Source of the DNA: a virus
Taxonomy: Duplodnaviria; Heunggongvirae; Uroviricota; Caudoviricetes
Virus record (IMG/VR): IMGVR_UViG_2879754190_000001
DNA length: 18,208 bases
Reading direction: 5' to 3' (one strand)
Both the position numbers and the translations under genes were made by a program. Of this stretch, positions 1-17,756 are shown piece by piece. The notes below the pieces were generated by a model. The model searched no databases. It was not told the origin of the DNA and saw nothing but the letters and a program-made list of their open reading frames with translations. Every line of letters begins with the position of its first letter. Within the stretch, counting starts at the first letter, position 1.

Positions 1-45
1 GTGATAGTCTTAATACTAGTTTTTAGACTTGTCATTGGAGAACAG

Positions 46-477
46 ATTATTGATGTCTTAGGGCCGGAGAAACGCAGACGGCGTACCACACAGGAAAAGA
101 TCGCAATTGTTCAGCAGAGCTTTGAACCGGGGATGACGGTCTCCCTCGTTGCCCGGCAACATGGTGTAGCAGCCAGCCAGTTATTTCTCTGGCGTAAGCA
201 ATACCAGGAAGGAAGTCTTACTGCTGTGGCCGCCGGAGAACAGGTTGTTCCTGCCTCTGAACTTGCTGCCGCCATGAAGCAGATTAAAGAACTCCAGCGC
301 CTGCTCGGCAAGAAAACGATGAAAAATGAACTCCTCAAAGAAGCCGTTGAATATGGACGGGCAAAAAAGTGGATAGCGCACGCGCCCTTATTGCCAGGGA
401 TGGGGAGTAAGCTTAGTCAGCCGTTGTCTCCGGATGTCGCGTGCGCAGTTGCACGTCATTCTCAGACGAACCGATGA
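46..477 (+). pseudogene. insC: IS2 orfA (InsC-like), defective: expected ATG start is ATT at 46-48, and a 1-nt loss in the G-run at 397-400 removes the normal stop so the frame reads on to 477
   Basis: Translation [91 protein letters not shown]...; A6G slippery heptamer at 363-369; orfB lies in the +1 rather than the -1 frame relative to orfA. Confidence 0.8.
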
Positions 478-1270
478 CTGGATGGATGGCCGCCGCAGTC
501 GTCACACTGATGATACGGATGTGCTTCTCCGTATACACCATGTTATCGGAGAGCTGCCCACGTATGGTTATCGTCGGGTATGGGCGCTGCTTCGCAGACA
601 GGCAGAACTTGATGGTATGCCTGCGATCAATGCCAAACGTGTTTACCGGCTCATGCGCCAGAATGCGCTGTTGCTTGAGCGAAAACCTGCTGTACCGCCA
701 TCGAAACGGGCACATACAGGCAGAGTGGCCGTGAAAGAAAGCAATCAGCATGGTGCTCTGACGGGTTCGAGTTCTGCTGTGATAACGGAGAGACTGCGTG
801 TCACGTTCGCGCTGGACTGCTGTGATCGTGAGGCACTGCACTGGGCGGTGACTACCGGCGGCTTCAACAGTGAAACAGTACAGGACGTCATGCTGGGAGC
901 GGTGGAACGCCGCTTCGGCAACGATCTTCCGTCGTCTCCAGTGGAGTGGCTGACGGATAATGGTTCATGCTACCGGGCTAATGAAACACGCCAGTTCGCC
1001 CGGATGTTGGGACTTGAACCGAAGAACACGGCGGTGCGGAGTCCGGAGAGTAACGGAATAGCAGAGAGCTTCGTGAAAACGATAAAGCGTGACTACATCA
1101 GTATCATGCCCAAACCAGACGGGTTAACGGCAGCAAAGAACCTTGCAGAGGCGTTCGAGCATTATAACGAATGGCATCCGCATAGTGCGCTGGGTTATCG
1201 CTCGCCACGGGAATATCTGCGGCAGCGGGCTTGTAATGGGTTAAGTGATAACAGATGTCTGGAAATATAG
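434..1270 (+). pseudogene. insD: IS2 orfB (InsD-like transposase catalytic part) with an internal out-of-frame patch at about 748-793
   Basis: 278-aa ORF matching InsD except residues [14 protein letters not shown]; the expected [14 protein letters not shown] (first Asp of the DDE motif) is readable in a different frame of the same nucleotides, implying a 1-nt and a 2-nt deletion flanking the patch. Confidence 0.8.
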
Positions 1271-1326
1271 GGGCAAATCCAGTATAAGCCATTATCAAAC
1301 CCACCCGTAGATAGGCTTTGTAATGG

Positions 1327-1637
1327 CTACTTCTTCAGAAATGATTCGATGAATTCACGTCGAGGATGACGATAGTTCAGAATATCTTCTGGCATCCTCA
1401 TAAAGCGGTTGTTGCCGTCTTTGGCAGTAACAAAACAGCTGTGAACTCCGCAGACATCCGTTTTGATCGTGTCGCTATACTCAAAAAGCAACTGAGCCAT
1501 CTTCTCTTGCCATTCTGGAGGCATAGCCTCCATGAATACTCGCGGCATCACGCAGAACGACGCATGCGTAAGACCAAACCACAGTTGCAGGTCTTTACGA
1601 TATTCTTCATCCATCGTCTTTACCTTTGTTGCAATGA
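1327..1637 (-). pseudogene. C-terminal fragment (about 103 codons) of an unidentified gene, N-terminally truncated by the IS911 insertion
   Basis: Minus-strand ORF 1327-1710 whose first 24 codons are IS911 terminal sequence; the remainder (IIATKVKTMDEEYRKDLQLWFGLTHASF...MPEDILNYRHPRREFIESFLKK) has coding-like composition. I do not recognise the family. Confidence 0.3.
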
Positions 1638-1709
1638 TGAAGTGGCACACTGAATTTGGCCACCTGAACAGAGGTGATATGCTCACCTCAGAACAACACA
1701 GGTGCTCCA

Positions 1710-1904
1710 ATGAAAAAAAGAAATTTTAGCGCAGAGTTTAAACGCGAATCCGCTCAACTGGTTGTTGACCAGAAATACACGGTGGCAGATGCCGCCAAAG
1801 CTATGGATGTTGGCCTTTCCACAATGACAAGATGGGGCAAACAACTGCGTGATGAGCGTCAGGGCAAAACACCAAAAGCCTCCCCATTACCCGGAACAAA
1901 TTGA
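1710..1904 (+). pseudogene. IS911 orfA (OrfA/InsN-like), frameshifted by 1-nt deletions; slippery heptamer reduced from A6G to A5G at 1959-1964
   Basis: [59 protein letters not shown] then premature stop; the remaining OrfA sequence [21 protein letters not shown] is readable in the +1 frame from 1900. Confidence 0.8.
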
Positions 1905-2004
1905 AATCCGTGAGCTCAGGAAAAAGCTACAACGCATTGAAATGGAGAATGAAATATTAAAAAGGCTACCGCGCTCTTGATGTCAGACTCCTGAACAGTT
2001 CTCG

Positions 2005-2394
2005 ATAATCGGGAAACTCAGAGCGCATTATCCTGTGGTCACACTCTGCCATGTGTTCGGGGTTCATCGCAGCAGCTACAGATACTGGAAAAACCGTCCT
2101 GAAAACCAGACGGCAGACGGGCTGTATTACGCAGTCAGGTACTTGAGCTACATGGCATCAGCCACGGTTCGGCCGGAGCAAGAAGCATCGCCACAATGGC
2201 AACCCGGAGAGGCTACCAGATGGGACGCTGGCTTGCTGGCAGGCTCATGAAAGAGCTGGGGCTGGTCAGCTGTCAGCAGCCGACTCACCGGTATAAACGT
2301 GGTGGTCATGAACATGTTGCTATCCCTAACTACCTTGAAAGGCAGTTCGCCGTGACCGAACCAAATCAGGTGTGGTGCGGTGATGTGACCTATA
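2005..2394 (+). pseudogene. IS911 orfB, 5' portion (exon 1 relative to the intron), containing one further frameshift near 2115-2119
   Basis: [33 protein letters not shown] (frame 1) then ...[66 protein letters not shown] (frame 0), ending exactly at the intron 5' junction. Confidence 0.75.
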
Positions 2395-3062
2395 GTGTGC
2401 CCGGAGTTCAGGGCGGGCATGGATGCTTAAATGAACCGCGAGTCTGTCTGGAATATTGAACCGGTAACTCACGATGAGAAACCCAACAATCCCACCGGGT
2501 GTGACGGTGGAGAACCTGAGCGGCAGTGACCTGCGGCATGCCCGCAGGGTGATGTAACCCGCTGACAACGGGGATTGAGGCGAGATCACTAAGCCGAGAT
2601 GATCCTCAAGGTTAAGTACTGAAAGGCTGAAGAACATGAACCCGTTAATCCGCCTCTGTGGGTTGAAAACGTCACCACGGCCTACGTGATCTGACAGGCC
2701 GTGCAGGAGGAACTGGCAGTGATACGTAAGCACTGCCGGTCGAAGGTGTTTTGACATGTATGCGAAACACCGGGGCAGCAGCGTCTATCACACTTGCGTT
2801 GCTGACTTCTGCCAACTTGCGGCAAGCAAGGATAAAGAGTGCGACGGGCAGCCTCCTCAGTATGCCTGAGTCCGGCAGGTAAACCGGGAAGGTCAGCGAC
2901 GGATGTTAAGGGGCATGGCTCCGATGACGCGCTGGCTGGCGGAGCTTCCGTAGTAGTCCGCGATGGGGAAAGCCCATTACATGGCGAAGGGAAGCAGTTT
3001 GAATGTGTTTGCGACGTGAATTAACTGACCTAACGAGGTGAAGACCTTTGATAATCAGCGAA

Positions 3063-4570
3063 ATGCAACGCAAGCTTGCCACATGGGCAGCCACCGATCC
3101 GTCCCTACGGATTCAACGGCTGCTGCGTCTGATAACACAACCAGAATGGCTGGCTGAAGCGGCGCGGATCACGCTTTCATCAAAGGGGGCCCATACCCCC
3201 GGCGTTGATGGCGTGAACAAAACAATGCTACAGGCCAGACTGGCTGTTGAGCTGCAAATCCTCAGGGATGAATTACTCTCAGGCCACTACCAGCCCTTGC
3301 CCGCCAGACGGGTTTACATCCCTAAAAGCAACGGCAAACTGCGACCACTGGGTATCCCCGCGTTGCGGGATCGTATTGTTCAGCGGGCCATGCTGATGGC
3401 GATGGAGCCGATATGGGAGAGTGATTTTCATACGCTCTCATATGGCTTCCGGCCTGAGCGCAGTGTCCACCACGCGATCCGCACGGTGAAATTACAGCTC
3501 ACAGACTGTGGTGAAACCCGGGGACGCTGGGTGATTGAAGGCGACCTGTCCAGTTACTTCGACACCGTACATCATCGACTGCTGATGAAGGCTGTACGCC
3601 GCAGGATCAGTGACGCACGTTTCATGACTCTGCTGTGGAAAACCATCAAGGCGGGACATATCGATGTCGGTCTCTTTCGGGCGGCCAGTGAAGGTGTGCC
3701 ACAGGGCGGTGTTATATCGCCGCTATTATCGAACATCATGCTGAATGAGTTCGATCAATACCTGCATGAGCGCTACCTGAGCGGGAAAGCCAGAAAAGAT
3801 CGGTGGTACTGGAATAACAGTATCCAACGGGGCCGAAGTACGGCGGTCAGAGAAACTGGCAGTGGAAACCCGCGGTGGCGTACTGCCGCTATGCCGATGA
3901 TTTTGTCCTCATCGTCAAAGGCACCAAAGCACAGGCGGAAGCCATCAGGGAGGAGTGTCGGGGTGTGCTCGAAGGCAGTCTGAAACTCAGGCTGAACATG
4001 GATAAGACTAAAATCACCCATGTTAATGACGGCTTTATCTTTCTGGGGCACAGGATCATTCGCAAACGCAGTCGTTATGGCGAGATGCGAGTGGTCTCAA
4101 CGATCCCGCAGGAGAAAGCCAGAAACTTCGCCGCATCGCTGACAGCACTGTTATCAGGCAACTACAGTGAAAGCAAAGTCGATATGGCTGAACAACTCAA
4201 CCGAAAACTGAAAGGCTGGGCCATGTTCTATCAGTTCGTTGATTTTAAGGCCAAAGTCTTCAGTTATATCGACCGTGTCGTGTTCTGGAAGCTGGCTCAC
4301 TGGCTGGCCCGCAAATACCGTACAGGTATCGCTTCCCTGATGAGGTGGTGGTGTAAATCACCGAAACCGGGTCAGAGCAAAACGTGGGTTTTATTTGGTA
4401 AAACCAATCACGGCAAGCTCAGCGGCGAAATACTGTACCGGTTGGTGGGGCAAGGCAAGAAGCTGTTCCGCTGGCGGCTACCCGAAGGTAATCCCTATCT
4501 GAGGACGGAGACCAGAACACGTATACATCGCGCTTTACAGAAGTGGCAATGGCGTTCGCCAGGCATTTAA
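3063..4570 (+). pseudogene. Group II intron-encoded reverse transcriptase/maturase, split by a frameshift near 3850-3860; no HNH endonuclease motif seen
   Basis: RT motifs GVDGV, RRVYIPKSNGKLRPLGIPALRDRIVQ, SYGFRPERS, GDLSSYFDTV and GVPQGGVISPLLSNIMLNEFD in one frame; YADDFVL, LNMDKTKITHV, GFIFLGHRI and the maturase-like C-terminus in the -1 frame. Confidence 0.8.
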
Positions 4571-4575
4571 ATGGA

Positions 4576-4609
4576 GAGCCGGATGCGCTGAAAGGTGCAC
4601 GTCCGGTTC
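4576..4609 (+). other. Group II intron catalytic domain V hairpin (part of the ribozyme RNA)
   Basis: GAGCCGGATGCGCT-GAAA-GGTGCACGTCCGGTTC: 34 nt, AGC catalytic triad near the base, GAAA tetraloop, close to the domain V consensus; sits about 50 nt from the intron 3' end. Confidence 0.75.
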
Positions 4610-4631
4610 GGGGAGGAGAGCAGGGAAATAG

Positions 4632-5138
<507 letters not shown>

Positions 5139-5146
5139 CCACTTCA

Positions 5147-6115
5147 CCTTTCTTTCCGAACCTTGTTGATCACCTTCTGGTTAAGCATCACACGGCTGAT
5201 GGCGTTGAAGATGGCATTTCAATCTGCTACTTCAAGCCATACTCGCAAGGCCGTGCTCGCTGGCAGGGTGACACAATCCACGGCGTGTGGTTTGACGAAG
5301 AGCCACCATACAGCATTTATGGCGAAGGTCTTACCCGTACCAACAAATACGGGCAATTCTCAATTCTGACGTTTACCCCGCTGATGGGGATGTCTGACGT
5401 TGTTACCAAGTTCCTGAAGAACCCCAGCAAGTCGCAGAAAGTGGTCAACATGACCATCTATGACGCTGAGCACTATACCGACGAGCAGAAAGAGCAAATC
5501 ATCGCATCATATCCCGAGCATGAGAGAGAGGCGCGTGCTCGCGGTATTCCTACGATGGGTAGTGGTCGAATCTTCCAGATACCGGAAGAGACGATTAAGT
5601 GTCAGCCGTTCGAGTGTCCTGATCACTTCTACGTAATTGGCGGGATGGATTTCGGATGGGATCACCCACAGGCGCAAGTTCAGCTTTGGTGGGATAAGGA
5701 GGCAGACACAATCTACGTTTCACGCGTGTGGAAGGCGAAAGAAAAAACAGCCGTTCAGGCGTGGGGAGCCGTTAAATCATGGGCGCATAAAGTGCCAACC
5801 GCATGGCCTCATGATGGAAACCAGCACGAGAAGGGCGGCGGTGAGCAGCTCAAAGGGCAGTATGCAGACGCTGGATTTATGATGTTGCAGGAGCATGCGA
5901 CATGGCCTGATGGCGGTAACGCTGTTGAGCCAGGCATCACTGAATTGCGCGACATGATGCTCGATGGTCGCTTCAAAGTATTCAATACCTGTGAGCCATT
6001 CTTTGAGGAGTTCCGCCTCTATCACCGTGATGAAAACGGGAAAATCGTCAAGCTTAACGACGACGTGCTATCCGCCGTTCGCTATGCATACATGATGCGC
6101 CGCTTCGCAAAATGA
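5147..6115 (+). pseudogene. P22-like terminase large subunit (gene 2 equivalent), C-terminal about 322 codons only; the N-terminal ATPase region is missing, replaced by IS911
   Basis: Open frame begins exactly at the IS911 right end; the terminase assignment rests mainly on its position immediately upstream of the portal gene (gene order 2-1-8-5), with VIGGMDFGWDHP consistent with a nuclease-type acidic motif. P22 gp2 is about 499 aa. Confidence 0.75.
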
Positions 6116-6186
6116 TGCGCGACATCAAAAAACCAAAAGAGAAAAAGATACCAGCCCCAATCAGGCCCATCGCACGGAGAACTTAA

Positions 6187-8352
6187 ATGGCCGACGAAAA
6201 CAGACTCAATTCCATTCTGTGTAAGTTTGACGCAGACTGGATGGCGAGCGATGAAGCCAGAACCGAGGCGACAAATGACCTGTATTTTAGCCGAGTGTCG
6301 CAATGGGATGACTGGCTATCAAACTACACTACCCTGCAATATCGCGGACAATTCGATGTTGTTCGCCCGGAGGTCAGGAAACTGGTCGCAGAGATGCGCC
6401 GGAACCCTGTCGACGTTCTCTTCCGACCCAAAGACGGCGCTAATCCTGATGCAGCCGATGTATTGATGGGGATGTATCGTACTGATATGCGCCATAACAC
6501 GGCAAAGATTGCCGTTAACGTTGGCGTTCGTGAGCAGATAGAGTCAGGCGTTGGTGCATGGCGTCTGGTCACGCAGTACGAAGACAACGATCCAACAAGC
6601 AACAATCAGGTAATCCGACGCCTGCCAATCCATGAAGCCTGCTCACACGTCATATGGGACGCCAACAGCAAGCAGATGGATAAGAGCGACGCTAAGCACT
6701 GCACGGTGATTAACGCCTTGTCGCGCAATGGCTGGAAAGAGTTCGCAGAGGATTACGGTATTGACCCGGATACCCTGCCATCTTTCCAGAATCCTAACGA
6801 TACATGGCTATTCCCGTGGGTGTCGAATGATGTCGTCTACGTCGCTGAGTATTACGAGGTAGAAGAGGAGAAGGAGAAGGTCTTCATCTACCGCGACCCG
6901 CTGACAGGTGAGCCGGTCAGCTATTACCAGCAGGATATCAAAGACGTCATCGACGACCTGGCTAATCGTGGATTCATTAAGGTAGCAGAGCGCAAGGTGA
7001 AGCGTCGGCGTGTGTATAAGTCGATCATCACCTGTACGCAGATACTGAAAGACCGCGAGAAGATAGCCGGAGAGCATATTCCAATCGTTCCAGTGTATGG
7101 CGAATGGTCATTCGCTGGTGACAAGGAGTGCTACGAGGGTGTGGTAAGGCTGACGAAAGACGGTCAACGCCTTCGTAACATGATTATGTCGTTCAACGCC
7201 GATATTGTTGCTCGGTCACCGAAGAAGAAACCGACCTTCTTCCCTGAGCAAATCGAAGGCTACGAATACATGTACGGCGGAAATGATGACTATCCGTACT
7301 ATCTGCAGAACAGGACTGATGAAAACGGTAACGACCTGCCGATTGGTCCAATCTCCTACATGGAAAACCCTGAAGTGCCGCAAGCCAACGCTTACATGCT
7401 TGAGGCTGCCACCAACGCAGTGAAAGAAGTGGCTAGTCTTGGCGTGGATGCGCAGGCGGCAAATGGTCAGGTCGCTTTTGATACCGTCAATCAACTGAAC
7501 ATGCGGGCAGACCTTGAGACATACGTGTTTCAGGATAACCTGGCTACCGCAATGCGACGTGATGGCGAGATTTATGCCTCAATGGTCAACGATATTTATG
7601 ACGTTCCTCGTCATGTAACGCTGACACTTGAAGATGGAAGCGAGAAAGACGTTCAACTCTATGCGCAAGTTGTCGATTACCAGTCCGGCAATGTGGTCAC
7701 ACTCAACGACATTCGCGGTCGATATGAGTGCTATACAGACGTTGGGCCATCCTTCCAGAGTATGAAGGAACAGAACCGCGCAGAGATTCAGGAGTTGCTC
7801 ACCAAGGTTCCGCAAGGTACTCCAGAGTTCCAGATGCTGATGCTGCAATACTTCACGCTGCTTGACGGTAAAGGCGTCGAGATGATGCGAGAGTACGCGA
7901 ACAAGCAACTGGTGATGATGGGGCTGAAGAAACCAGAAACACCTGAAGAGATGGAGATGGTGCAGCAGGCACAACAACAGCCGCAGCAGCCATCAGCAGA
8001 GCAAATTCAGGCGCAGGGTATCCTTCTGCAAGGTCAGGCTGAATTGCTCAAGGCAGAGAACCAACAGGCGCAGATTCAGGTTGAAGCTGCCAAGGTTGAA
8101 GCCCAAAACCAACTCAACGCCGCGAAGATTGCAGAAATATTCAACAATATGGACCTCGACAAGCAGGCAGAACTGCGTGAGTACCTCAGGCTCGTAGGTC
8201 AATTCCAGCAACAGCGCAGCAAAGATGCTCGTGCTAACGCTGAGCTGCTTCTTAAAGATGCAGACCAGACTCATTCACAACGCATGGATTTCGCGAATCT
8301 TATGCGTCAAGTTCAAATCCCCTCCGGCGGAGTAGCCGAGACACCTCAATAA
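6187..8352 (+). CDS. Portal protein, P22 gp1 family (721 aa)
   Basis: Near-colinear similarity to the P22 portal as I recall it (MADENRL...[12 protein letters not shown]...[12 protein letters not shown]...[23 protein letters not shown]...[15 protein letters not shown]...NAELLLK...VAETPQ); GGAG RBS 8 nt upstream. Confidence 0.95.
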
Positions 8353-8365
8353 GAGAGAGTTAATC

Positions 8366-9277
8366 ATGGACCAAACCACCGACATTCAGGCTTCTGAAGA
8401 ATTAACCCTGCCCGGCAATCATGCAGCGGCATCTGCTGATGGCTTAGTTGTCGATAATGCCAACGACAGCGCAGGTCAGGAAGAAGGCTTTGAGATTGTC
8501 CGGAAAGACGATGAGAAACCAAAACAAGACCCGGCAACTAATGCTGAATTTGCCCGTCGCCGCATCGAACGCAAACGCCAGCGTGAGCTTGAGCAGCAGA
8601 TGGAAGCGGTTAAGCGTGGAGAGTTGCCGGAGCACCTGCGGGTGAACCCTGAGTTACCAAAACAACCAGACCCTAACGATTATCTTTCCGAAGATGCACT
8701 GGCTAAGTACGACTATGACCAGAGCCGCGCACTGGCTGCCTTCCAGCAGGCAAACAGTGAATGGCAGATCAAGGCTATGGACGCACGAAGCCAGGCTGTC
8801 GCCGAGCAGGGTCGCAAAACTCAGGAGTTCACCCAGCAATCAGCGCAATACGTCGAGGCGGCCCGTAAGCACTACGAGGCAGCGGAAAAGCTCAATATCC
8901 CTGACTATCAGGAGAAAGAGGATGCATTCATGCAACTGGTGCCGCCAGCAGTCGGTGCCGACATCATGCGCCTCTTCCCGGAGAAATCCGCCGCTCTCAT
9001 GTATCACCTTGGTGCTAATCCTGAGAAAACACGCCAGTTGCTGGCGATGGACGGGCAATCCGCGCTGATTGAACTCACTCGACTGTCAGAACGTTTAACT
9101 CTCAAGCCTCGAGCCAAGCCTGTTTCAGAAGCCCCGTTACCTGATGAACCCATTCAGGGACATGCTGTTGCTGCAAATATCTCTGCGATTGAAAAGCAGA
9201 TGGAGGCGGCAGCAAACAAAGGGGATGTAGAGACGTACCGCAAGCTCAAGGCGCAACTGAATAAAGGAATTCGATAA
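8366..9277 (+). CDS. Scaffolding protein, P22 gp8-like (303 aa)
   Basis: Position between portal and coat; same length as P22 gp8 (303 aa); charged, helix-rich composition; stop overlaps the coat start (TAATG). Confidence 0.8.
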
Positions 9278-10572
9278 TGGCATTAAATGAAGGTCAACTG
9301 GTCACGTATGCTCTGGATGAAATCATCGGAACCGTCCAGAACCTGACGCCAATGGCGTCAAAAGTGACAAAATACCCCCCTCCGGCAGAATCCATGCAGC
9401 GTTCAAGCAACACCGTGTGGATGCCTGTTGAGCAGGAAGCGCCAACCCAGACTGGCTGGGATTTAACTGGCAACGCAACCGGGATTCTGGAACTCTCCGT
9501 GAAGTGCAACATGGGCGATCCGGATAACGATTTCTTCGAGCTTCGTGCAGATGACCTGCGTGATGAGCGTTCTTACCGTCGCCGCATCCAGGCATCCGCC
9601 AAAAAACTGGCGAATAACATTGAGTCAGCGATTGCCAAACAGGCAACTGAAATGGGCTCGCTTGTTGTTCACGATACCCGCGCAATTGGTCCATCGACTG
9701 GCCTGCCTGGCTGGGATTTTGTGTCTGATGCAGAGCGACTGATGTTCTCCCGTGAGCTAAACCGCGACATGGGCATCAGTTACTTCCTGAACCCTGACGA
9801 TTACCGCAAAGCAGGCCGCAACCTGGTAGATGGTGACATCTTCGGGCGCGTTCCTGAAGAAGCATATCGAAACGGTACTATTCAGCGTCAGATTGCTGGC
9901 TTTGATGAAATTCTTCGCTCACCGAAACTTCCGGCAGTTACCAAGTCAACCGCGACTGGTGTAACTGTTTCTGGTGCGCAGAAGTTTAAGCCGCAGGCAT
10001 ACACCCTTGATACCGATGGTAACAAAGAGAACGTCGACAACCGTGTTGCAACGGTGACCGTATCCTCCACCACCGGATTTAAGCGCGGCGACAAAATCAG
10101 CTTCATTGGTGTGAAGTTCCTGTCTCAGATGGCGAAGAATGTGCTGACTGATGACGCGACTTTCTCAATCACCCGTGTGATCGATGGTACTCACATCGAA
10201 ATCACGCCGAAGCCGATTGCGCTGGATGACGCGTCACTGACAAAAGAAGAGAAGGCTTACGCTAACGTAAACACCTCTCTTGCTGATACCACTCCGGTAA
10301 ACGTTCTGAACGTGGCAACAACCACCGCTAACGTGTTCTGGGCTGATGACTCAATCCGCCTGCTGTCTCAGCCGATCCCGGTAACCCATGAACTGTTTGC
10401 TGGCATGAAAACGTCTTCCTTCAGCATTCCAGGTATTGGTGTTAACGGCATCTTCGCAACGCAGGGTGATATCAACACTCTGTCTGGTAAGTGCCGTATT
10501 GCTGTGTGGTATTCAGCATGTGCTGTACGACCAGAGGCAATTGGTGTTGGTCTGCCTAACCAGACCGCGTGA
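9277..10572 (+). CDS. Major capsid (coat) protein, P22 gp5-like (431 aa)
   Basis: Position and length (P22 gp5 is 430 aa); translationally coupled to the scaffold gene; followed by a strong intrinsic terminator. Confidence 0.85.
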
Positions 10573-10580
10573 TAACCAGA

Positions 10581-10604
10581 GGGAGCTTCGGCTCCCGTTT
10601 TTAT
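10581..10604 (+). terminator. Rho-independent terminator/attenuator after the coat gene
   Basis: GGGAGC-TTCG-GCTCCC perfect 6-bp GC-rich stem with a UUCG tetraloop, followed by GTTTTTAT; sits 9 nt after the coat stop codon. Confidence 0.6.
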
Positions 10605-10616
10605 CTGGAGACAAGC

Positions 10617-10841
10617 ATGACACACATGATCTTTCGTCATGGCGACATGAAGAAGTGGAAAGGCGTTGGCTACGACTTTGAAATCGTGAAAGCCGAAGAG
10701 CTTCAGGAATATCTGGATGCTGGCTGGTTTTCACATCCTGATGACCTTTTGAAGGATGTTGCAGAGCCAGAAGAAAAACAGCGTAAAAAGCCTGGTCGAA
10801 AACCTAAGGCGGCAGCAGATGAACCTGACAACGAAGGGTGA
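10617..10841 (+). CDS. Small hypothetical protein (74 aa) between coat and gp4
   Basis: ATG with GGAG 7 nt upstream, just after the terminator; [74 protein letters not shown]; overlaps the gp4 start by 23 nt in another frame. Confidence 0.35.
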
Positions 10842-11319
10842 TTTAGTTCTTGCGGCATTACGTAAGCTCGGTGTTGCATCAAATGCCACGTTAACCGATG
10901 TCGAACCGCAGTCTATGGAAGACGGCGTCAACGACCTTGAAATGATGATGGCTGAATGGCTTGGCGGTGATGCGTCACCTGGTATCAACGTTGGCTACAT
11001 TTTTGCTGATGCAGATGTTGCTCCGGATCCGGGCGATGAGCACGGTTTATCAAATAACGCTATCAATGCCGTCATTTTCAACCTTGCCTGCCGAATTGCT
11101 CCAGATTATGCGCTGGAAGCGTCTGCAAAACTTATAACCACTGCCAGATACGGGAAAGAGCGACTCGTCAAACTGTCTGCAATGGACAGGGCAAAAGCAG
11201 CTAAATGTAAGTCCGGTTATCCAAACCGTATGCCTGTTGGTAGTGGTAACCAGTTGGCGAAGTGGAATGGTTGGAATTACTTCCACCGAAAGGAACCTTG
11301 CGATAACGGGAGCGAATAA
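10819..11319 (+). CDS. Head completion / tail accessory protein, P22 gp4-like (166 aa)
   Basis: [33 protein letters not shown]...[14 protein letters not shown]...; length matches P22 gp4 (166 aa) when started at ATG 10819 rather than the upstream ATG at 10756. Confidence 0.75.
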
Positions 11320-12737
11320 TGCCTATTCAGCAACTTCCGCTTATGAAAGGTGTCGGCAAAGACTTCCGAAACGCCGACTATATCGACTATCTGCCAGTGA
11401 ATATGCTGGCTACACCCAAAGAAATCCTGAACAGCAGCGGATATCTTCGCTCATTCCCGGGCATTGCCAAACGTTCTGACGTGAACGGTGTATCTCGCGG
11501 CGTCGAGTACAACATGGCGCAGAATGCTGTTTATCGCGTGTGTGGCGGCAAGCTGTACAAAGGAGAAAGTGAAGTCGGTGATGTTGCCGGAAGTGGTCGT
11601 GTATCAATGGCGCATGGTCGGACATCACAGGCGGTAGGCGTTAATGGTCAACTGGTCGAGTATCGCTATGATGGCACGGTCAAAACCGTCTCAAACTGGC
11701 CTACAGACAGTGGATTCACTCAGTATGAGTTAGGTTCAGTTCGCGACATTACGCGCTTACGTGGGCGTTATGCGTGGTCAAAAGACGGAACTGATTCATG
11801 GTTTATCACTGACCTTGAAGACGAATCTCATCCTGACCGTTACAGCGCACAATATCGTGCCGAGTCTCAGCCTGACGGCATCATCGGTATCGGGACATGG
11901 CGAGACTTCATCGTCTGCTTTGGTTCATCGACTATTGAATATTTCTCCCTGACTGGCGCAACCACCGTTGGTGCCGCTTTGTATGTTGCACAACCATCGC
12001 TGATGGTGCAGAAAGGCATTGCCGGAACTTACTGCAAAACGCCATTCGCTGATTCGTATGCGTTTATCAGCAATCCGGCAACGGGTGCGCCGTCTGTGTA
12101 TATCATCGACTCCGGTCAGGTGTCACCAATTGCCAGCGCGAGCATTGAGAAAATCCTCCGCTCCTACACTGCTGATGAACTGGCTGATGGTGTGATGGAA
12201 TCGCTGCGATTTGATGCTCATGAGTTGCTGATTATCCACCTTCCGCGTCACGTCCTCGTGTACGACGCATCTTCAATCGCCAATGGCCCACAATGGTGTG
12301 TGCTGAAAACAGGTCTGTATGACGATGTGTACCGCGCTATCGACTTCGTTTACGAAGGCAATCAGATAACGTGCGGCGATAAGCTGGAATCTGTTACCGG
12401 GAAACTGCAATTCGATATCAGCAGCCAGTACGACAAGCAACAGGAACACCTGCTGTTTACTCCACTCTTCAAAGCGGATAACGCCAGAGTGTTCGACCTT
12501 GAGGTTGAATCGTCAACTGGCGTTGCGCAGTACGCCGACCGCCTTTTTCTCTCTGCAACCACTGACTGCATCAATTACGGGCGTGAGCAGATGATTGAGC
12601 AGAATGAACCGTTCGTTTACGACAAGCGTGTTTTGTGGAAGCGAGTAGGGCGCATCAGGAAAAATGTCGGCTTCAAATTGCGCGTTATCACGAAGTCACC
12701 TGTCACTCTGTCTGGCGCTCAGATAAGGATTGAGTAA
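11319..12737 (+). CDS. Tail accessory protein, P22 gp10-like (472 aa)
   Basis: Position after gp4; same length as P22 gp10 (472 aa); TAATG start/stop overlaps on both sides. Confidence 0.75.
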
Positions 12738-13534
12738 TGGCTGATTCGAATCTCAATGTGCCGGTAATCATCCAAGCTACGCGGCTCGATACATCAGTCC
12801 TTCCACGCAATATCTTCTCGCAGTCGTATCTGCTTTACGTTATCGCACAGGGCACTGATGTTGGTAACGTGGCTAACAAAGCCAACGAGGCCGGACAGGG
12901 CGCTTATGATGCACAGGTCAGGAACGATGAGCAGGATGTGATTCTCGCTGACCATGAGCAGCGAATTTCTGCTGCGGAAGCAACGCTTGTTAATCATGAG
13001 GAGCGAATCAGACAGGCAGAATCAACTCTTCAGGACCATGAAACACGAATAGCTCAGAATGAAAGCGATATTTCGTCGCTTGACACAAGAGTTCAGTCGC
13101 TGGAGTCGCAGGTTTCAGACCATGAAACGCGCATCGATGCTCTGGAGTATGCAACCACACGCAAGAAGTCAGAGGTTGTTTACTCTGGTGTATCTGTAAC
13201 CATCCCGACAGCGCCGACCAACCTTGTTAGCCTGCTGAAAACGCTCACACCGTCATCCGGCTCGTTGGCACCATTCTTCGACACCGTTAACAACAAGATG
13301 GTTGTGTTCAACGAGAACAAAACCCTGCTCTTCAAGTTGTCGATTGTCGGCACGTGGCCCAGCGGAACCGCCAACAGGTCAATGCAGCTAACCTTTTCCG
13401 GCTCTGTTCCTGACACACTGGTCAGCAGTCGTAATGCGGCGACAACAACCGACAACATCCTGTTAGCTACGTTCTTCAGCGTGGATAAAGACGGCTTTCT
13501 TGCCACAACCATCAAGATAATCGCGGAGCAGTGA
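12737..13534 (+). CDS. Tail needle (P22 gp26 family) with a conserved N-terminal domain, coiled-coil repeats and a divergent C-terminal domain (265 aa)
   Basis: N-terminus [43 protein letters not shown]...[20 protein letters not shown] matches the gp26 N-terminus as I recall it; central DHE.RI heptad-type repeats; the C-terminal 120 aa do not resemble P22 gp26. Confidence 0.8.
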
Positions 13535-13989
13535 TGATTACATTCAAACCAACGCGAAACATCGACCTGATAGAAGCAGTCGGAAATCACCCTGACATTA
13601 TCGCCGGGAGCAACAACGGTGATGGATACGACTACAAACCTGAATGCCGTTACTTTGAGGTGAACGTGCACGGTCAGTTTGGCGGCATTGTTTACTATCA
13701 GGAGATTCAGCCGCTGACATTAGATTGCCACGCCATGTACCTGCCAGAGATTCGCGGCTTCAGCAAGGAAATTGGGCTGGCGTTCTGGCGATACATTCTG
13801 ACTAACACCACCGTTCAGTGCGTAACATCGTTCGCTGCACGCAAATTCCGACACGGTCAGATGTACTGCGCAATGATTGGCCTTAAGCGTGTAGGAACCA
13901 TCAAGAAATACTTCAAAGGCGTGGATGACGTGACTTTTTACAGCGCCACACGCGAAGAACTAATCGACTTCCTGAATCACGGGAGATAG
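13534..13989 (+). CDS. Hypothetical protein in the P22 gp14 position (151 aa), Cys/His-containing
   Basis: ORF coupled to the tail needle stop (TGATG); [25 protein letters not shown]...KPECRYFEVNVHGQFGG...LDCHAMYLPEIRGF...; assignment by position only (P22 gp14 is 176 aa). Confidence 0.5.
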   Translation: MITFKPTRNIDLIEAVGNHPDIIAGSNNGDGYDYKPECRYFEVNVHGQFGGIVYYQEIQPLTLDCHAMYLPEIRGFSKEIGLAFWRYILTNTTVQCVTSFAARKFRHGQMYCAMIGLKRVGTIKKYFKGVDDVTFYSATREELIDFLNHGR

Positions 13990-13991
13990 CC

Positions 13992-14684
13992 ATGTTATAT
14001 GCATTTAAGCTGGGCAGAAAACTGCGCGGCGAGGAACCTTATTGCCCTGAAAAAGGCGGGAAAGGTGGCAGTTCTGATAAAAGCGCAAAGTATGCAGCAG
14101 AAGCCCAGAAGTATGCTGCAGACCTGCAAAATCAGCAGTGGCAGACGATCATGAAAAACCTTGCTCCGTTCACGCCTCTTGCGGAGCAGTATGTTAACCA
14201 GCTTCAGAACCTTTCCAGTTTAGAAGGTCAGGGGCAGGCACTTAATCAGTATTACAACTCTAAGCAGTATAAAGACCTTGCAGGGCAGGCGCGTTACCAG
14301 AGTCTTGCTGCTGCGGAGGCGACGGGTGGACTTGGTTCGACAGCCACAAGCAATCAACTGGCTACGATCGCGCCGACACTCGGTCAGTCTTGGTTATCAA
14401 ATCAGATGAGCAATTACAACAATCTGGCAAACGTTGGGCTTGGTGCGCTGCAAGGTCAGGCAAACGCCGGGCAGACGTACGCCAACAACATGAGCAGCAT
14501 TGCACAGCAAAGCGCAGCTCTTGCCGCTGCTAATGCCAATAAACCATCAAGTCTTCAGACTGCAATTAGCGGTGGCACGTCTGGTGCGATTGCCGGTGCA
14601 GGTCTTGCCAGCCTTTTGGGAACATCAACGCCTTGGGGCGCTGGTATTGGTGCTGGTATCGGATTGCTTGGCTCGTTGTTTTAA
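13992..14684 (+). CDS. Ejection (internal virion) protein, P22 gp7-like (230 aa)
   Basis: Position and length (P22 gp7 is 229 aa); Q/A/N-rich low-complexity body with a glycine-rich hydrophobic C-terminus (GAIAGAGLASLLG...GAGIGAGIGLLGSLF). Confidence 0.6.
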   Translation: MLYAFKLGRKLRGEEPYCPEKGGKGGSSDKSAKYAAEAQKYAADLQNQQWQTIMKNLAPFTPLAEQYVNQLQNLSSLEGQGQALNQYYNSKQYKDLAGQARYQSLAAAEATGGLGSTATSNQLATIAPTLGQSWLSNQMSNYNNLANVGLGALQGQANAGQTYANNMSSIAQQSAALAAANANKPSSLQTAISGGTSGAIAGAGLASLLGTSTPWGAGIGAGIGLLGSLF

Positions 14685-14693
14685 GGGGGAATC

Positions 14694-16025
14694 ATGGCTA
14701 CTTGGCAAGGAACAAACGGCGGATTGTTGGCTGGTATCGGCGGCGTCAACTCAAACGCTCCGAGCGTAAATGACATCGGCAATACGCTTCAGCTTATCAG
14801 GCAGAACAATGATATTGAGCGTTCAGGCGCTAACAATGTTGGGCTGACTGCTTTGCAAGGTCTTTCAGGTATTGCGGGTGTTTTTCAGCAGGAAAAGCAG
14901 GCTCAGCGGCAGAAAGAATTTCAGCAGGCGTACGCTAATGCTTATGCGTCTGGTGATCGCGGTGCTTTGCGTCAGTTGGCTACTCAATATCCAGACCAGA
15001 TTGAATCCGTTCGTAAAGGCATGGGATTCATTGATGAAGAGCAGCGTAATTCTATCGGCACCTTAGCGGCTGGCGCACGCCTTGCGTCATCGTCTCCAGA
15101 AGCAATGCAATCATGGCTGCAAAACAACGCCGGTGAGTTAGCTCGTGTTGGCGTTAATCCTCATGACGTCGCTCAGATGTACCAACAGAACCCGCGGCAG
15201 TTCGGCGAATTTGTCGATCACCTGGGGATGAACAGTCTCGGGCCCGAAAAATACTTTGACCTACAGGATAAAATGCAGGGTCGCCAGGTTACCATGCGCG
15301 GTCAGGATCTGGATTCGCAAACCGCCGCTCGGAATCAGGCAATCACAATGCGCGGACAAGATATCCAGGCGAATTTAGGTCAGCAGCGCATTAATCTGGA
15401 CGCAGAAACAAACCGCATTAACAACGAAAATAAGCGCCTTGACCGGATGCTATCAGCAGAAACTAACGACCTGAAGCGCCAGGAAATACAGAGCCGCATA
15501 GCAGCCAACAACCAGCAGTTGCAGCAGAAGCAGCAAGCGCTAAATGATGGCTACAAAGACGGCATCAACACCCTCACAACCAGCATGTTCACTCTGAACG
15601 ATATCGTTAGTTCTCCTTCACTTAAGAGCATTACAGGCTTACGTGGAGTAATCCCCAACGTTCCAGGCTCACAGGCTGCAGACACTCAGGCACGACTTGA
15701 TACCTTTAAATCACAAGCATACCTGACAGCGGTTCAGGCCATGCGAGGCATGGGCGCACTTTCTGATGCCGAGGGCAAAAAGCTCGACCAGGCTGTTGGT
15801 TCGCTGCAGAACTCGCAGAGCGAGGAGTCCTTTCGTCGCAACGCTGGCGTCATCCTGAACACGCTCAACCAGAAGCGTAATGAGGCGGTTGGTAAGTACG
15901 TTCAGCAAAACGGTATCAAGCGAGTGGAAGCGCCTCAGGCTTCTATAGATTACCTGAAGCAGCACCCCGAGCTGTCAATCGACTTCATTAATCGCTACGG
16001 ATATCTTCCATCTTTGGGGCAGTAA
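14694..16025 (+). CDS. Ejection protein, P22 gp20-like (443 aa)
   Basis: Position in the conserved 7-20-16 order; Q/N-rich; GGGGG RBS upstream. Confidence 0.6.
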   Translation: MATWQGTNGGLLAGIGGVNSNAPSVNDIGNTLQLIRQNNDIERSGANNVGLTALQGLSGIAGVFQQEKQAQRQKEFQQAYANAYASGDRGALRQLATQYPDQIESVRKGMGFIDEEQRNSIGTLAAGARLASSSPEAMQSWLQNNAGELARVGVNPHDVAQMYQQNPRQFGEFVDHLGMNSLGPEKYFDLQDKMQGRQVTMRGQDLDSQTAARNQAITMRGQDIQANLGQQRINLDAETNRINNENKRLDRMLSAETNDLKRQEIQSRIAANNQQLQQKQQALNDGYKDGINTLTTSMFTLNDIVSSPSLKSITGLRGVIPNVPGSQAADTQARLDTFKSQAYLTAVQAMRGMGALSDAEGKKLDQAVGSLQNSQSEESFRRNAGVILNTLNQKRNEAVGKYVQQNGIKRVEAPQASIDYLKQHPELSIDFINRYGYLPSLGQ

Positions 16026-17756
16026 ATGGCTAATTACCGTGATTTGTTAGAGCAGGCTGGCGCACGTTACGGTGTGCCAGAAGGGTTGATGACTGCACTG
16101 GGTGCCAAGGAGTCTTCTTACAACCCTGCCGCAGTAAGCTCCGCCGGGGCTGTAGGATTGACTCAGGTCATGCCTGGGACATGGCGTGATATGGGTTATA
16201 CCGATGAGCAAATGCAAAACCCCGAATATCAGGCTGACGCTGGCGCGCGCTATCTGGCAAAGATGTACCAGCAGTTTGGTAACTGGCGTGACTCTCTTCA
16301 GGCTTATCACGACGGTCCCGGCAACGTTATGAAGGCAAAGCGTGGTGAATATACGCCAGGACCTGAAGGCCGCGGTTACGTTGATGATCGCTTTGCTCAA
16401 TGGGCTGGTGACCCGGTGACAGACTCAACAGTCGAACAGCGCGCCACCTCTGCAAAGGTACATCCTCAGCAAGACCCTAACAACCCGTTTGCACAACTGG
16501 AAGTACAGTCATCCGAACAAGTATCGGCATCAGGTGTGCAGTCAGACCCAAATAATCCATTTGCTCAGATTGAGCAGCAGGCAGCCAGTCAGCAGCCACC
16601 TCAACCCGTAAGTTCTGTCGCACCGAAACCTGTTCAGCAACAAACAGTTAATCAGGCCAATAATGCACCAACACGGGAAGAACCATCATTGATGCAACAA
16701 GCTGGCGATTGGCTCACTGGTGGTCAAAGTGCAGGGCAAATTGCAGAACAGGCTGGTCGTGGTCTGGTAAACATACCATTTGACGTATTGCAGGGTGGCG
16801 CAAGTCTGATTAATGCAATCAGTCAGGGGCTTGGGGGGCCAAAAGTATTGGATGATGTTTATCGTCCAGTAGACAGACCGACAGACCCCTACGCGCAAGC
16901 TGGAGAGTCAATAGGCGGTTATCTTGTTCCTGGAGCAGGTGTAGCTGGAAACATGGTCATTGGTTCTCTCGCTGACGCGGCGAATCAACGGGGTGATTTT
17001 GCCGAAAATGCCGCTATTAATGCCGGACTTAGCATTGCTACGCATGGCCTGATAAATGGCGTTACCCGTGGTGTTCGTGGTGCATCAAATATAATTAGTG
17101 GCAATAAAACATCTGCACAGAGAGCGACCACTGCGCCAACAGAAACATCACCATTCTCCGGTGATGCCGCTGCAGCAACAAATCCTGCGGTTCATGCCGC
17201 AGAGGCAAGAGTAGCACAAGGTGTACCAATGACGCCTGCGACGAAGAACCCAGAGGAAGTCGTTCGCACAGTAGCAGCACAAAAAAGGCCAAATCTCGCT
17301 TCATCGCTTGATGAACTAGATATCAATCCTCAGGCTGAAGTTCTGGAGTCTGCTGAAAGGCTTAATGTTGATTCATTACTCCCTTCACACTTTTCCGGGA
17401 ACGAGCAATACAAGGCAGTTGAGCAAGCAATCAAGTCCCGTGCGGGTTCTGCTCTACAGGTGCAGGAAAATGAAGCAATCAGGCAGCTAGCACAGGGCGC
17501 GGGTGAGATAATTGATCGCGTTTCCGGTGCAAAAGATGCTCTTGGTATGAGCGACAAGTTTATTGATACGGTCAATGGAAGAATGTCTGCGCTGATGAAA
17601 CGAAGCGACCAGCTTTATCGCAATGTTGAAAAGGCGATGCCTGCAGGTGCAAAAATTGATGCGCCATCAACAAGGTCAATGCTCAAACAGGTGGCAGAAG
17701 ATCTTGGCGGGATGAAAAACCTTGACCCTATTGAAAAGAGAGTTGAGGTAGCCTGA
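16026..17756 (+). CDS. Ejection protein, P22 gp16-position, carrying an N-terminal lytic transglycosylase (SLT) domain (576 aa)
   Basis: N-terminal ...[34 protein letters not shown]...[14 protein letters not shown]...AYHDGPGNV has the family-1 lytic transglycosylase motif pattern (ES / GLMQ-type / AYN-like); followed by a long A/Q/G-rich region. Confidence 0.7.

Follow-up and report, generated by a model that had tools for sequence, protein, structure and literature searches.

Canonical IS2 (E. coli K-12 insC/insD; WP_088895425.1, [quoted passage not shown]) is a known element of the IS3 family in which orfB lies in the -1 frame relative to orfA, yielding the fusion transposase OrfAB. The catalytic core of OrfAB comprises residues 236-398, with D306 and E342 (PMC3219604); the first aspartate of the DDE triad is taken here to be D240, the aspartate of WCSD, by our own count from those two residues. 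The DNA analyzed here (the window, 18,208 nt) comes from the chromosome of S. flexneri 2a FC906 (CP037996.1), and the element at its left end is, judged by its sequence, an ordinary IS2: nucleotide identity to the canonical element over positions 47-1331 is ~99%, and the IRR, the A6G frameshift window, and the domain order HTH_Tnp_1 / HTH_21 / rve / rve_3 are common to both. Unlike canonical IS2, the deposited copy has ATT for ATG and orfB in the +1 frame, and its D240 lies within a run of 14 recoded codons. The original prediction, which had assigned the element to IS2, read these differences as at least three independent inactivating lesions, one of them a compensated frameshift over the DDE aspartate.

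The IRR (...CAAATCCA) is present and terminates at window 1281 (...GGGGCAAATCCA). The IRL (TAGACTGG...) and the first 46 nt of the element lie to the left of the window edge and are intact in the source contig, where the stretch upstream of the window (L007 9522-9567) contains TAGACTGGCCCCC..., with the IRL at L007 9522. Joined to the window part, this gives an IS2 of 1327 bp as deposited (1331 minus 4). The reference for comparison was two intact PGAP-annotated IS2 copies of 1331 bp, carrying the "programmed frameshift" note and aligned end to end with the window. The reference does differ from the window at all three predicted places, and the assignment to IS2 is upheld. In full, the window copy has eight substitutions (30 A>T, 48 G>T, 228 C>G, 322 G>A, 396 G>A, 434 G>A, 650 A>C, 850 C>G) and, through three deletions, lacks a C of the CCCGGGG run at 393, a G after 749, and the GA of GAGAGAGA after 787. 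The substitutions at 30, 228, 322, 434, 650, and 850 are additional to those predicted, and six of the eight are Shigella-lineage markers. Coordinates are collected in Table 1.

Table 1. Features of the window in the sequence as deposited (positions counted from the first nucleotide of the window).
Feature	Position	Strand	Basis or remark
IS2 positions 47-1331 of 1331-bp element	1..1281	+	98.6-98.9% identity to annotated IS2 copies
orfA-frame ORF as deposited, 158 aa from in-frame GTG at position 1	1..477	+	HTH_Tnp_1; WP_252997111.1
GGAG Shine-Dalgarno (37-40), 5-nt spacer, ATT (46-48) in place of canonical orfA ATG	37..48	+	
A_AAA_AAG programmed -1 frameshift heptamer (A6G window), intact	363..369	+	PMC3219604 for A6G window
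CCAGGG in place of CCCGGGG: one C lost and G>A at 396	393..399	+	alignment
G>A in GGG run; orfB-frame GTG becomes ATG	434..434	+	private to FC906 among orthologues
orfB-frame ORF as deposited, 278 aa	434..1270	+	HTH_21, truncated rve match, rve_3; WP_252997112.1
1-nt deletion junction (G of CAGCGATGG, IS2 position 797)	749..750	+	shared only with BA22372
14 out-of-frame codons (orfB ORF codons 106-119) replacing OrfAB R236-E250, including D240	749..790	+	
2-nt deletion junction, (GA)4 > (GA)3, IS2 positions 836-837	787..788	+	recurs in 7 unrelated IS2 copies
IS911-like element (1638-2394 and 4660-5146) split by group II intron (2395-4659)	1638..5146	+	12 FC906-private 1-nt indels
P22-like portal gene	6187..8352		
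P22-like scaffold gene	8366..9277		
P22-like coat gene	9277..10572		
then gp4-, gp10-, gp26-, gp7-, gp20-, and gp16-like genes			

As a description of the deposited sequence, the original prediction stands: each of the features it named is there. ATT is indeed found where the start codon is expected (ATG>ATT against the reference); annotation pipelines use the in-frame GTG at position 1 as the start. The 1-nt loss placed near 397-400 is real, but its actual site is a few bases further left, at 393-399, and because of it the orfA frame (frame 1) passes its normal TAA and runs to 477. orfB is in frame 2, i.e., +1 relative to orfA, and a -1 slip at 363-369 gives 15 codons and then a stop, so that slippage at the A6G site gives no fusion transposase, as had been predicted. 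The product of each frame has so far a single source: the 158-aa WP_252997111.1 is found on one contig only, as is the 278-aa WP_252997112.1 among about 15 billion proteins. An A at 434 is also a natural feature of another IS2 lineage, divergent but intact, which a CDC plasmid carries (L019, NZ_CP027551.1).

The 14 codons predicted at about 748-793, bracketed by a 1-nt and a 2-nt deletion with the frame restored beyond them, are likewise present. The expected 14-residue reading is legible in frame 1 at 751-792, and the reference has 15 residues in the patch. The Pfam rve match starts at profile position 23 rather than 3, losing positions 3-22 and falling from 67.8 to 49.1 bits. As deposited, then, the DDE triad is not intact: D240 lies inside the recoded codons, while the D306 and E342 regions are unchanged.

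The same flanks (TCATTGTGTA on one side of the IS2, GTATAAGCCA on the other) are found in nine other chromosomes, seven of them recovered via the small phage gene adjoining IS2 and two more via pattern scan. At this junction the IS2 of all nine measures exactly 1331 bp and has ATT along with the remaining lineage markers, and none of the nine has the deletion at 393, 749, or 787, or an A at 396 or 434. Gene callers report an intact 424-aa product at the orthologous IS2; orfB is in the -1 frame relative to orfA in every orthologous copy, and the first DDE aspartate is in frame. Since the orthologues have both the frame relation and the aspartate that the deposited sequence lacks, it is the assembly that is at fault, not the assignment to IS2, and loss of the -1 relation in FC906 is most likely an assembly error. 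The first predicted lesion (ATT) is inherited; the second and third are, compared with the nine orthologues, private to the FC906 assembly. The lesions of a genuine pseudogene should be common to its orthologues or recovered by independent sequencing, and only ATT is shared here, being found also in pCP301.

FC906 was assembled at CMC Vellore with Canu, Unicycler, and Pilon from MinION R9 1D reads (Albacore 2.0.1) and IonTorrent PGM 400-bp reads, and the authors of the FC906 paper point out that MinION has a high error rate. Compared over 12.3 kb with the structurally identical locus L010, the assembly has 16 small indels, mostly in homopolymers (15 deletions and one insertion): three in IS2, five in the IS911-like element, seven in the group II intron, and one in single-copy DNA. 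This amounts to 15 indels in 4,836 nt of multi-copy DNA versus 1 in 7,437 nt of single-copy DNA (Fisher p = 8.5e-6). Private substitutions relative to L010 number only ~3, an indel-to-substitution ratio of 16:3, and a neutral 4.6-kb flank of T6SS pseudogene has zero indels and one substitution. The spectrum expected of genuine pseudogenes, with substitutions at least as frequent as indels and not confined to repeats, is not the one seen, 15 of the 16 indels being in multi-copy DNA. The differences in IS911 and IS2 are private also with respect to L009, L012, L014, and L017, and the IS911 and intron ORFs that are broken in FC906 are intact in the orthologues (389-aa and 502-aa products). Short-read polishing is unreliable in multi-copy repeats, and errors therefore persist there; the group II intron (Rfam Intron_gpII match at window 4574-4659) itself occurs in multiple copies in S. 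flexneri, a single pINV having up to 3 places, and those copies are 5 nt longer than that of the window.

Of 5,426 complete E. coli genomes, in which the patch query matched 9,912 places, one carries the pair of deletions at 749 and 787. This is BA22372 (E. coli, NZ_CP040397.1, L003 3241-4566), from the same CMC Vellore department as FC906; IonTorrent drafts are what the BA22372-department paper describes, and the method for the closed chromosome is not documented there. The BA22372 copy has none of the Shigella-lineage substitutions and belongs to a different IS2 lineage from the window copy. Its insertion site, at the yaiT locus, is common to 227 genomes, BA22372 included, and over 1.9 kb it differs from two aligned orthologous copies solely by A6>A4 and the deletion pair. 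That IS2 copies of two unrelated lineages should have the same private pair in assemblies from a single laboratory points to a context-specific consensus error. Parts of the FC906 pattern recur more widely, marking these sites as generally troublesome: the (GA)4 contraction is accompanied by changed A6-run lengths in four of the seven unrelated copies that have it, and is the only indel of one of them, the NDM6 copy; one-base losses in CCCGGGG are found in at least eight other assemblies, including a DH5alpha record; and CCAGGG is found in one other, unrelated E. coli assembly, FELIX_MS516 (L018, NZ_CP163516.1), in a K-12-type IS2 at the ygeQ locus. Copies with the GA loss only were considered as evolutionary intermediates, an idea rejected because they come from unrelated lineages and laboratories and most have altered A-run lengths.

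Some of these copies have odd annotations. In BA22372 the A6>A4 change shortens the slippery run and so brings orfA and orfB into one continuous frame, as in the engineered A7G fused-frame mutant (the two run lengths being equal modulo 3), and PGAP calls a 407-aa "IS3 family transposase" there (WP_250376980.1), recoded DDE patch included. This is probably an artefactual RefSeq protein, like WP_252997111.1 and WP_252997112.1 of FC906. The CCAGGG copy of FELIX_MS516 is still labeled "programmed frameshift" by PGAP (WP_167551154.1).

On the comparison of these assembled sequences, the deletions in the FC906 IS2 are very probably uncorrected consensus errors in a normal S. flexneri-lineage copy; the technical cause is one we infer. 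The underlying element would be an ordinary member of the S. flexneri sub-lineage, with an inherited and transposition-compatible ATT, placed where a T6SS remnant meets a P22-like prophage, a junction that is conserved. Its three small deletions would be errors left uncorrected in the MinION R9 / IonTorrent hybrid consensus rather than bacterial mutations, the G>A changes at 396 and 434 are probably consensus errors too, and the "compensation" would be a chance total of 3 nt from two deletion errors, each specific to its sequence context. The compensated frameshift over the DDE aspartate is thus most likely an artefact, to be treated as not a real feature; as biology it finds no support, the deletions being private to one hybrid assembly and the same pair turning up in another assembly from the same laboratory. 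The same can be said of three independent inactivating lesions: ATT is inherited, and the other two are private to the assembly and sit among repeat-confined private homopolymer deletions. Some observations do weigh against an artefact. Simple homopolymer error does not describe the loss of the G from CAGCGATGG or of the GA from (GA)4, which make up two of the three IS2 deletions; small repeats are prone to genuine slippage in vivo, which may explain the (GA)4 contraction in individual copies such as NDM6; and IS pseudogenes do build up in Shigella genomes. Real private decay would have produced three small deletions and two transitions after FC906 diverged, with the frame restored by coincidence: the lesions do stand in the deposited sequence, decaying IS copies are abundant in Shigella genomes, and the sites are short and slippage-prone. 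This nevertheless seems unlikely, as it needs five private events in 1.3 kb next to 4.6 kb of neutral pseudogene with no indel and one substitution, the same private excess of 1-nt deletions affects the neighboring IS911-like element and intron (16:3 indel:substitution), and the identical deletion pair turns up in a second assembly from the same laboratory.

Could the pair itself be real, a frame-preserving DDE-dead allele that gene conversion or a site-specific mutational process brought into the unrelated IS2 lineages of FC906 and BA22372? If so, its product could be a protein that lacks catalytic activity and perhaps acts in regulation as a dominant negative, but we consider this highly doubtful. 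One form of the idea is an allele (del797 plus del836-837 in IS2 numbering) present in Vellore isolates, which spread by gene conversion or whose reads overwrote other copies during polishing. It accords with the fact that both genomes with the identical pair come from a single hospital laboratory, although their species differ, and that the interval between the deletions is otherwise identical in FC906 and BA22372. It is given a slighter chance still, however: the carrier copies are of different IS2 lineages with no flanking marker co-transferred; the 278-aa product occurs at only one place in FC906; no plasmid carrying both deletions was found in PLSDB (72,556 plasmids); and the pair is absent from the other E. 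coli genomes of the 5,426-genome set, from species-representative genomes, and from IMG/VR, although absence of the del749 junction from the last two collections in an exact-pattern scan carries little weight, GTDB merging most Shigella into E. coli. The least probable suggestion of all is a recurrent deterministic mutation, in which a template-switch, quasi-palindrome, or slippage event makes both deletions at once. Exact recurrence of the pair in two lineages and of the (GA)4 contraction alone in 7 copies would fit, but the only direct repeat is (GA)n, which cannot account for the loss of a G 38 nt upstream, and a biological hot spot should show in the assemblies of many laboratories rather than in two from Vellore. 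A quasi-palindrome or template-switch origin was set aside separately: no inverted repeat or complementary arms join the sites, and folding is slightly less favorable for the deleted form (-8.5 vs -9.7 kcal/mol, DNA).

The start codon is the part of the prediction that concerns real variation. From its distribution among sequenced copies, ATT is a real, inherited, S. flexneri-specific allele of an IS2 lineage. The combination 30T/48T is absent from 19,453 IS2 places in the 5,426 complete E. coli genomes and is matched at 100% identity by 22 S. flexneri pINV records; pCP301, a Sanger-era sequence, carries the ATT allele with 30A, and the allele can on that account be taken as real. Full-length ATT-bearing IS2 copies are found at at least five different insertion sites, two of which have perfect 5-bp target duplications (GCTGC, TGTCC); the lineage therefore transposed with ATT in place, and the allele is older than several transposition events. 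This distribution rules out ATT as a private inactivating lesion: its presence in every orthologue and at five or more sites contradicts the prediction that it was one of the changes that inactivated this copy.

Members of the S. flexneri ATT sub-lineage (CP0106/CP0105 of pCP301, and pINV and chromosomal copies) are annotated from the upstream GTG, giving a 424-aa product. The window copy shares with them 42T/43T, ATT, 228G, and 850G, as well as the variable markers 30T, 322A, and 650C; unlike it, they are full-length, without the three deletions, 396A, or 434A. All ATT-lineage copies examined have AA>TT at IS2 positions 42-43 (L007 9562-9563), upstream of orfA and close to the left end of the element. 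Loss of the orfA ATG did not stop mobilization of this sub-lineage, for which initiation in cis (at AUU) and supply in trans are both possible routes. The existence of an S. flexneri IS2 sub-lineage that spread with an ATT start is a small documented fact, of modest weight, and is the sole new biology here.

In the neighborhood of the element (L007 7800-9521 and window 1-1290), IS2 joins a decayed T6SS cluster, with remnants of TssF, TssE, ImpA, and ImpE, to the lysis-proximal end of a P22-like prophage. The 5-bp target-site duplication was not found at the window IS2, where the flanks are GTGTA and GTATA; since T6SS remnant and prophage DNA meet at the element, rearrangement after insertion is the likely reason. 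The T6SS-IS2-prophage junction is conserved in the nine other chromosomes, including one labeled E. coli (ECMA0423, 4.44 Mb), and its conservation without a target-site duplication implies an old IS2-mediated deletion or rearrangement. An additional 18 nt (window 1620-1637, TTACCTTTGTTGCAATGA) separate the IS911 end of FC906 from a 95-aa phage gene (window 1327-1614); they match native phage sequence of uninterrupted prophages (L011, L016) and are missing from the 6 other junction-sharing chromosomes examined, even from L013 with its inverted IS; the segment is either a real polymorphism or a chimeric consensus. In FC906 the intron RT/maturase is broken (ORFs 3048-3983 and 3875-4570), versus an intact 502-aa RT in L010. 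The IS911-like insertion truncates the N-terminus of the terminase in all strains. At window 6108, A5>A4 is private to FC906 compared with L009, L010, L012, and L014, and is the sole small indel in about 7-10 kb of single-copy DNA; it shifts the C-terminus of the terminase large-subunit remnant (ORF 5132-6115), which now stops at 6115 and no longer abuts the portal gene. The P22-like morphogenesis block (window 3862-16461) is apparently intact and 95-97% identical to E. coli prophages.

For the annotation of insertion sequences, the locus is a caution that calls of IS decay or pseudogenes from hybrid MinION/IonTorrent assemblies can be artefacts, and that two context-specific consensus errors can mimic an elegant frameshift compensation over a catalytic aspartate. 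Such calls from FC906 and BA22372 are already in RefSeq as the distinct proteins WP_252997111.1, WP_252997112.1, and WP_250376980.1. The FC906 pattern resembles the residual indel errors known from repeats of long-read and hybrid bacterial assemblies: its 1-base deletions lie mostly in homopolymers, are concentrated in multi-copy elements, are confined to this assembly among its relatives, and recur at the same k-mers in a second assembly from the same laboratory. It departs from the typical case in that two of the FC906 sites (GCGATG and (GA)4) are not homopolymers, and the likeness is one between assembled sequences, not reads.

For the ATT start there is a precedent within the IS3 family: OrfB of IS911 initiates at AUU, according to the work cited in PMC3219604 (Polard et al. 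1991, J Mol Biol 222:465). The ATT-start lineage may be an IS2 that is attenuated by nature yet still able to move, with initiation at AUU, a tentative reading that falls somewhat short of an even chance and is both milder and more probable than that of a real DDE-dead allele. The window ATT retains a GGAG 5 nt upstream. The two systems are comparable by analogy only, in that the AUU of IS911 starts OrfB, whereas that of the window copy would start OrfA and OrfAB.
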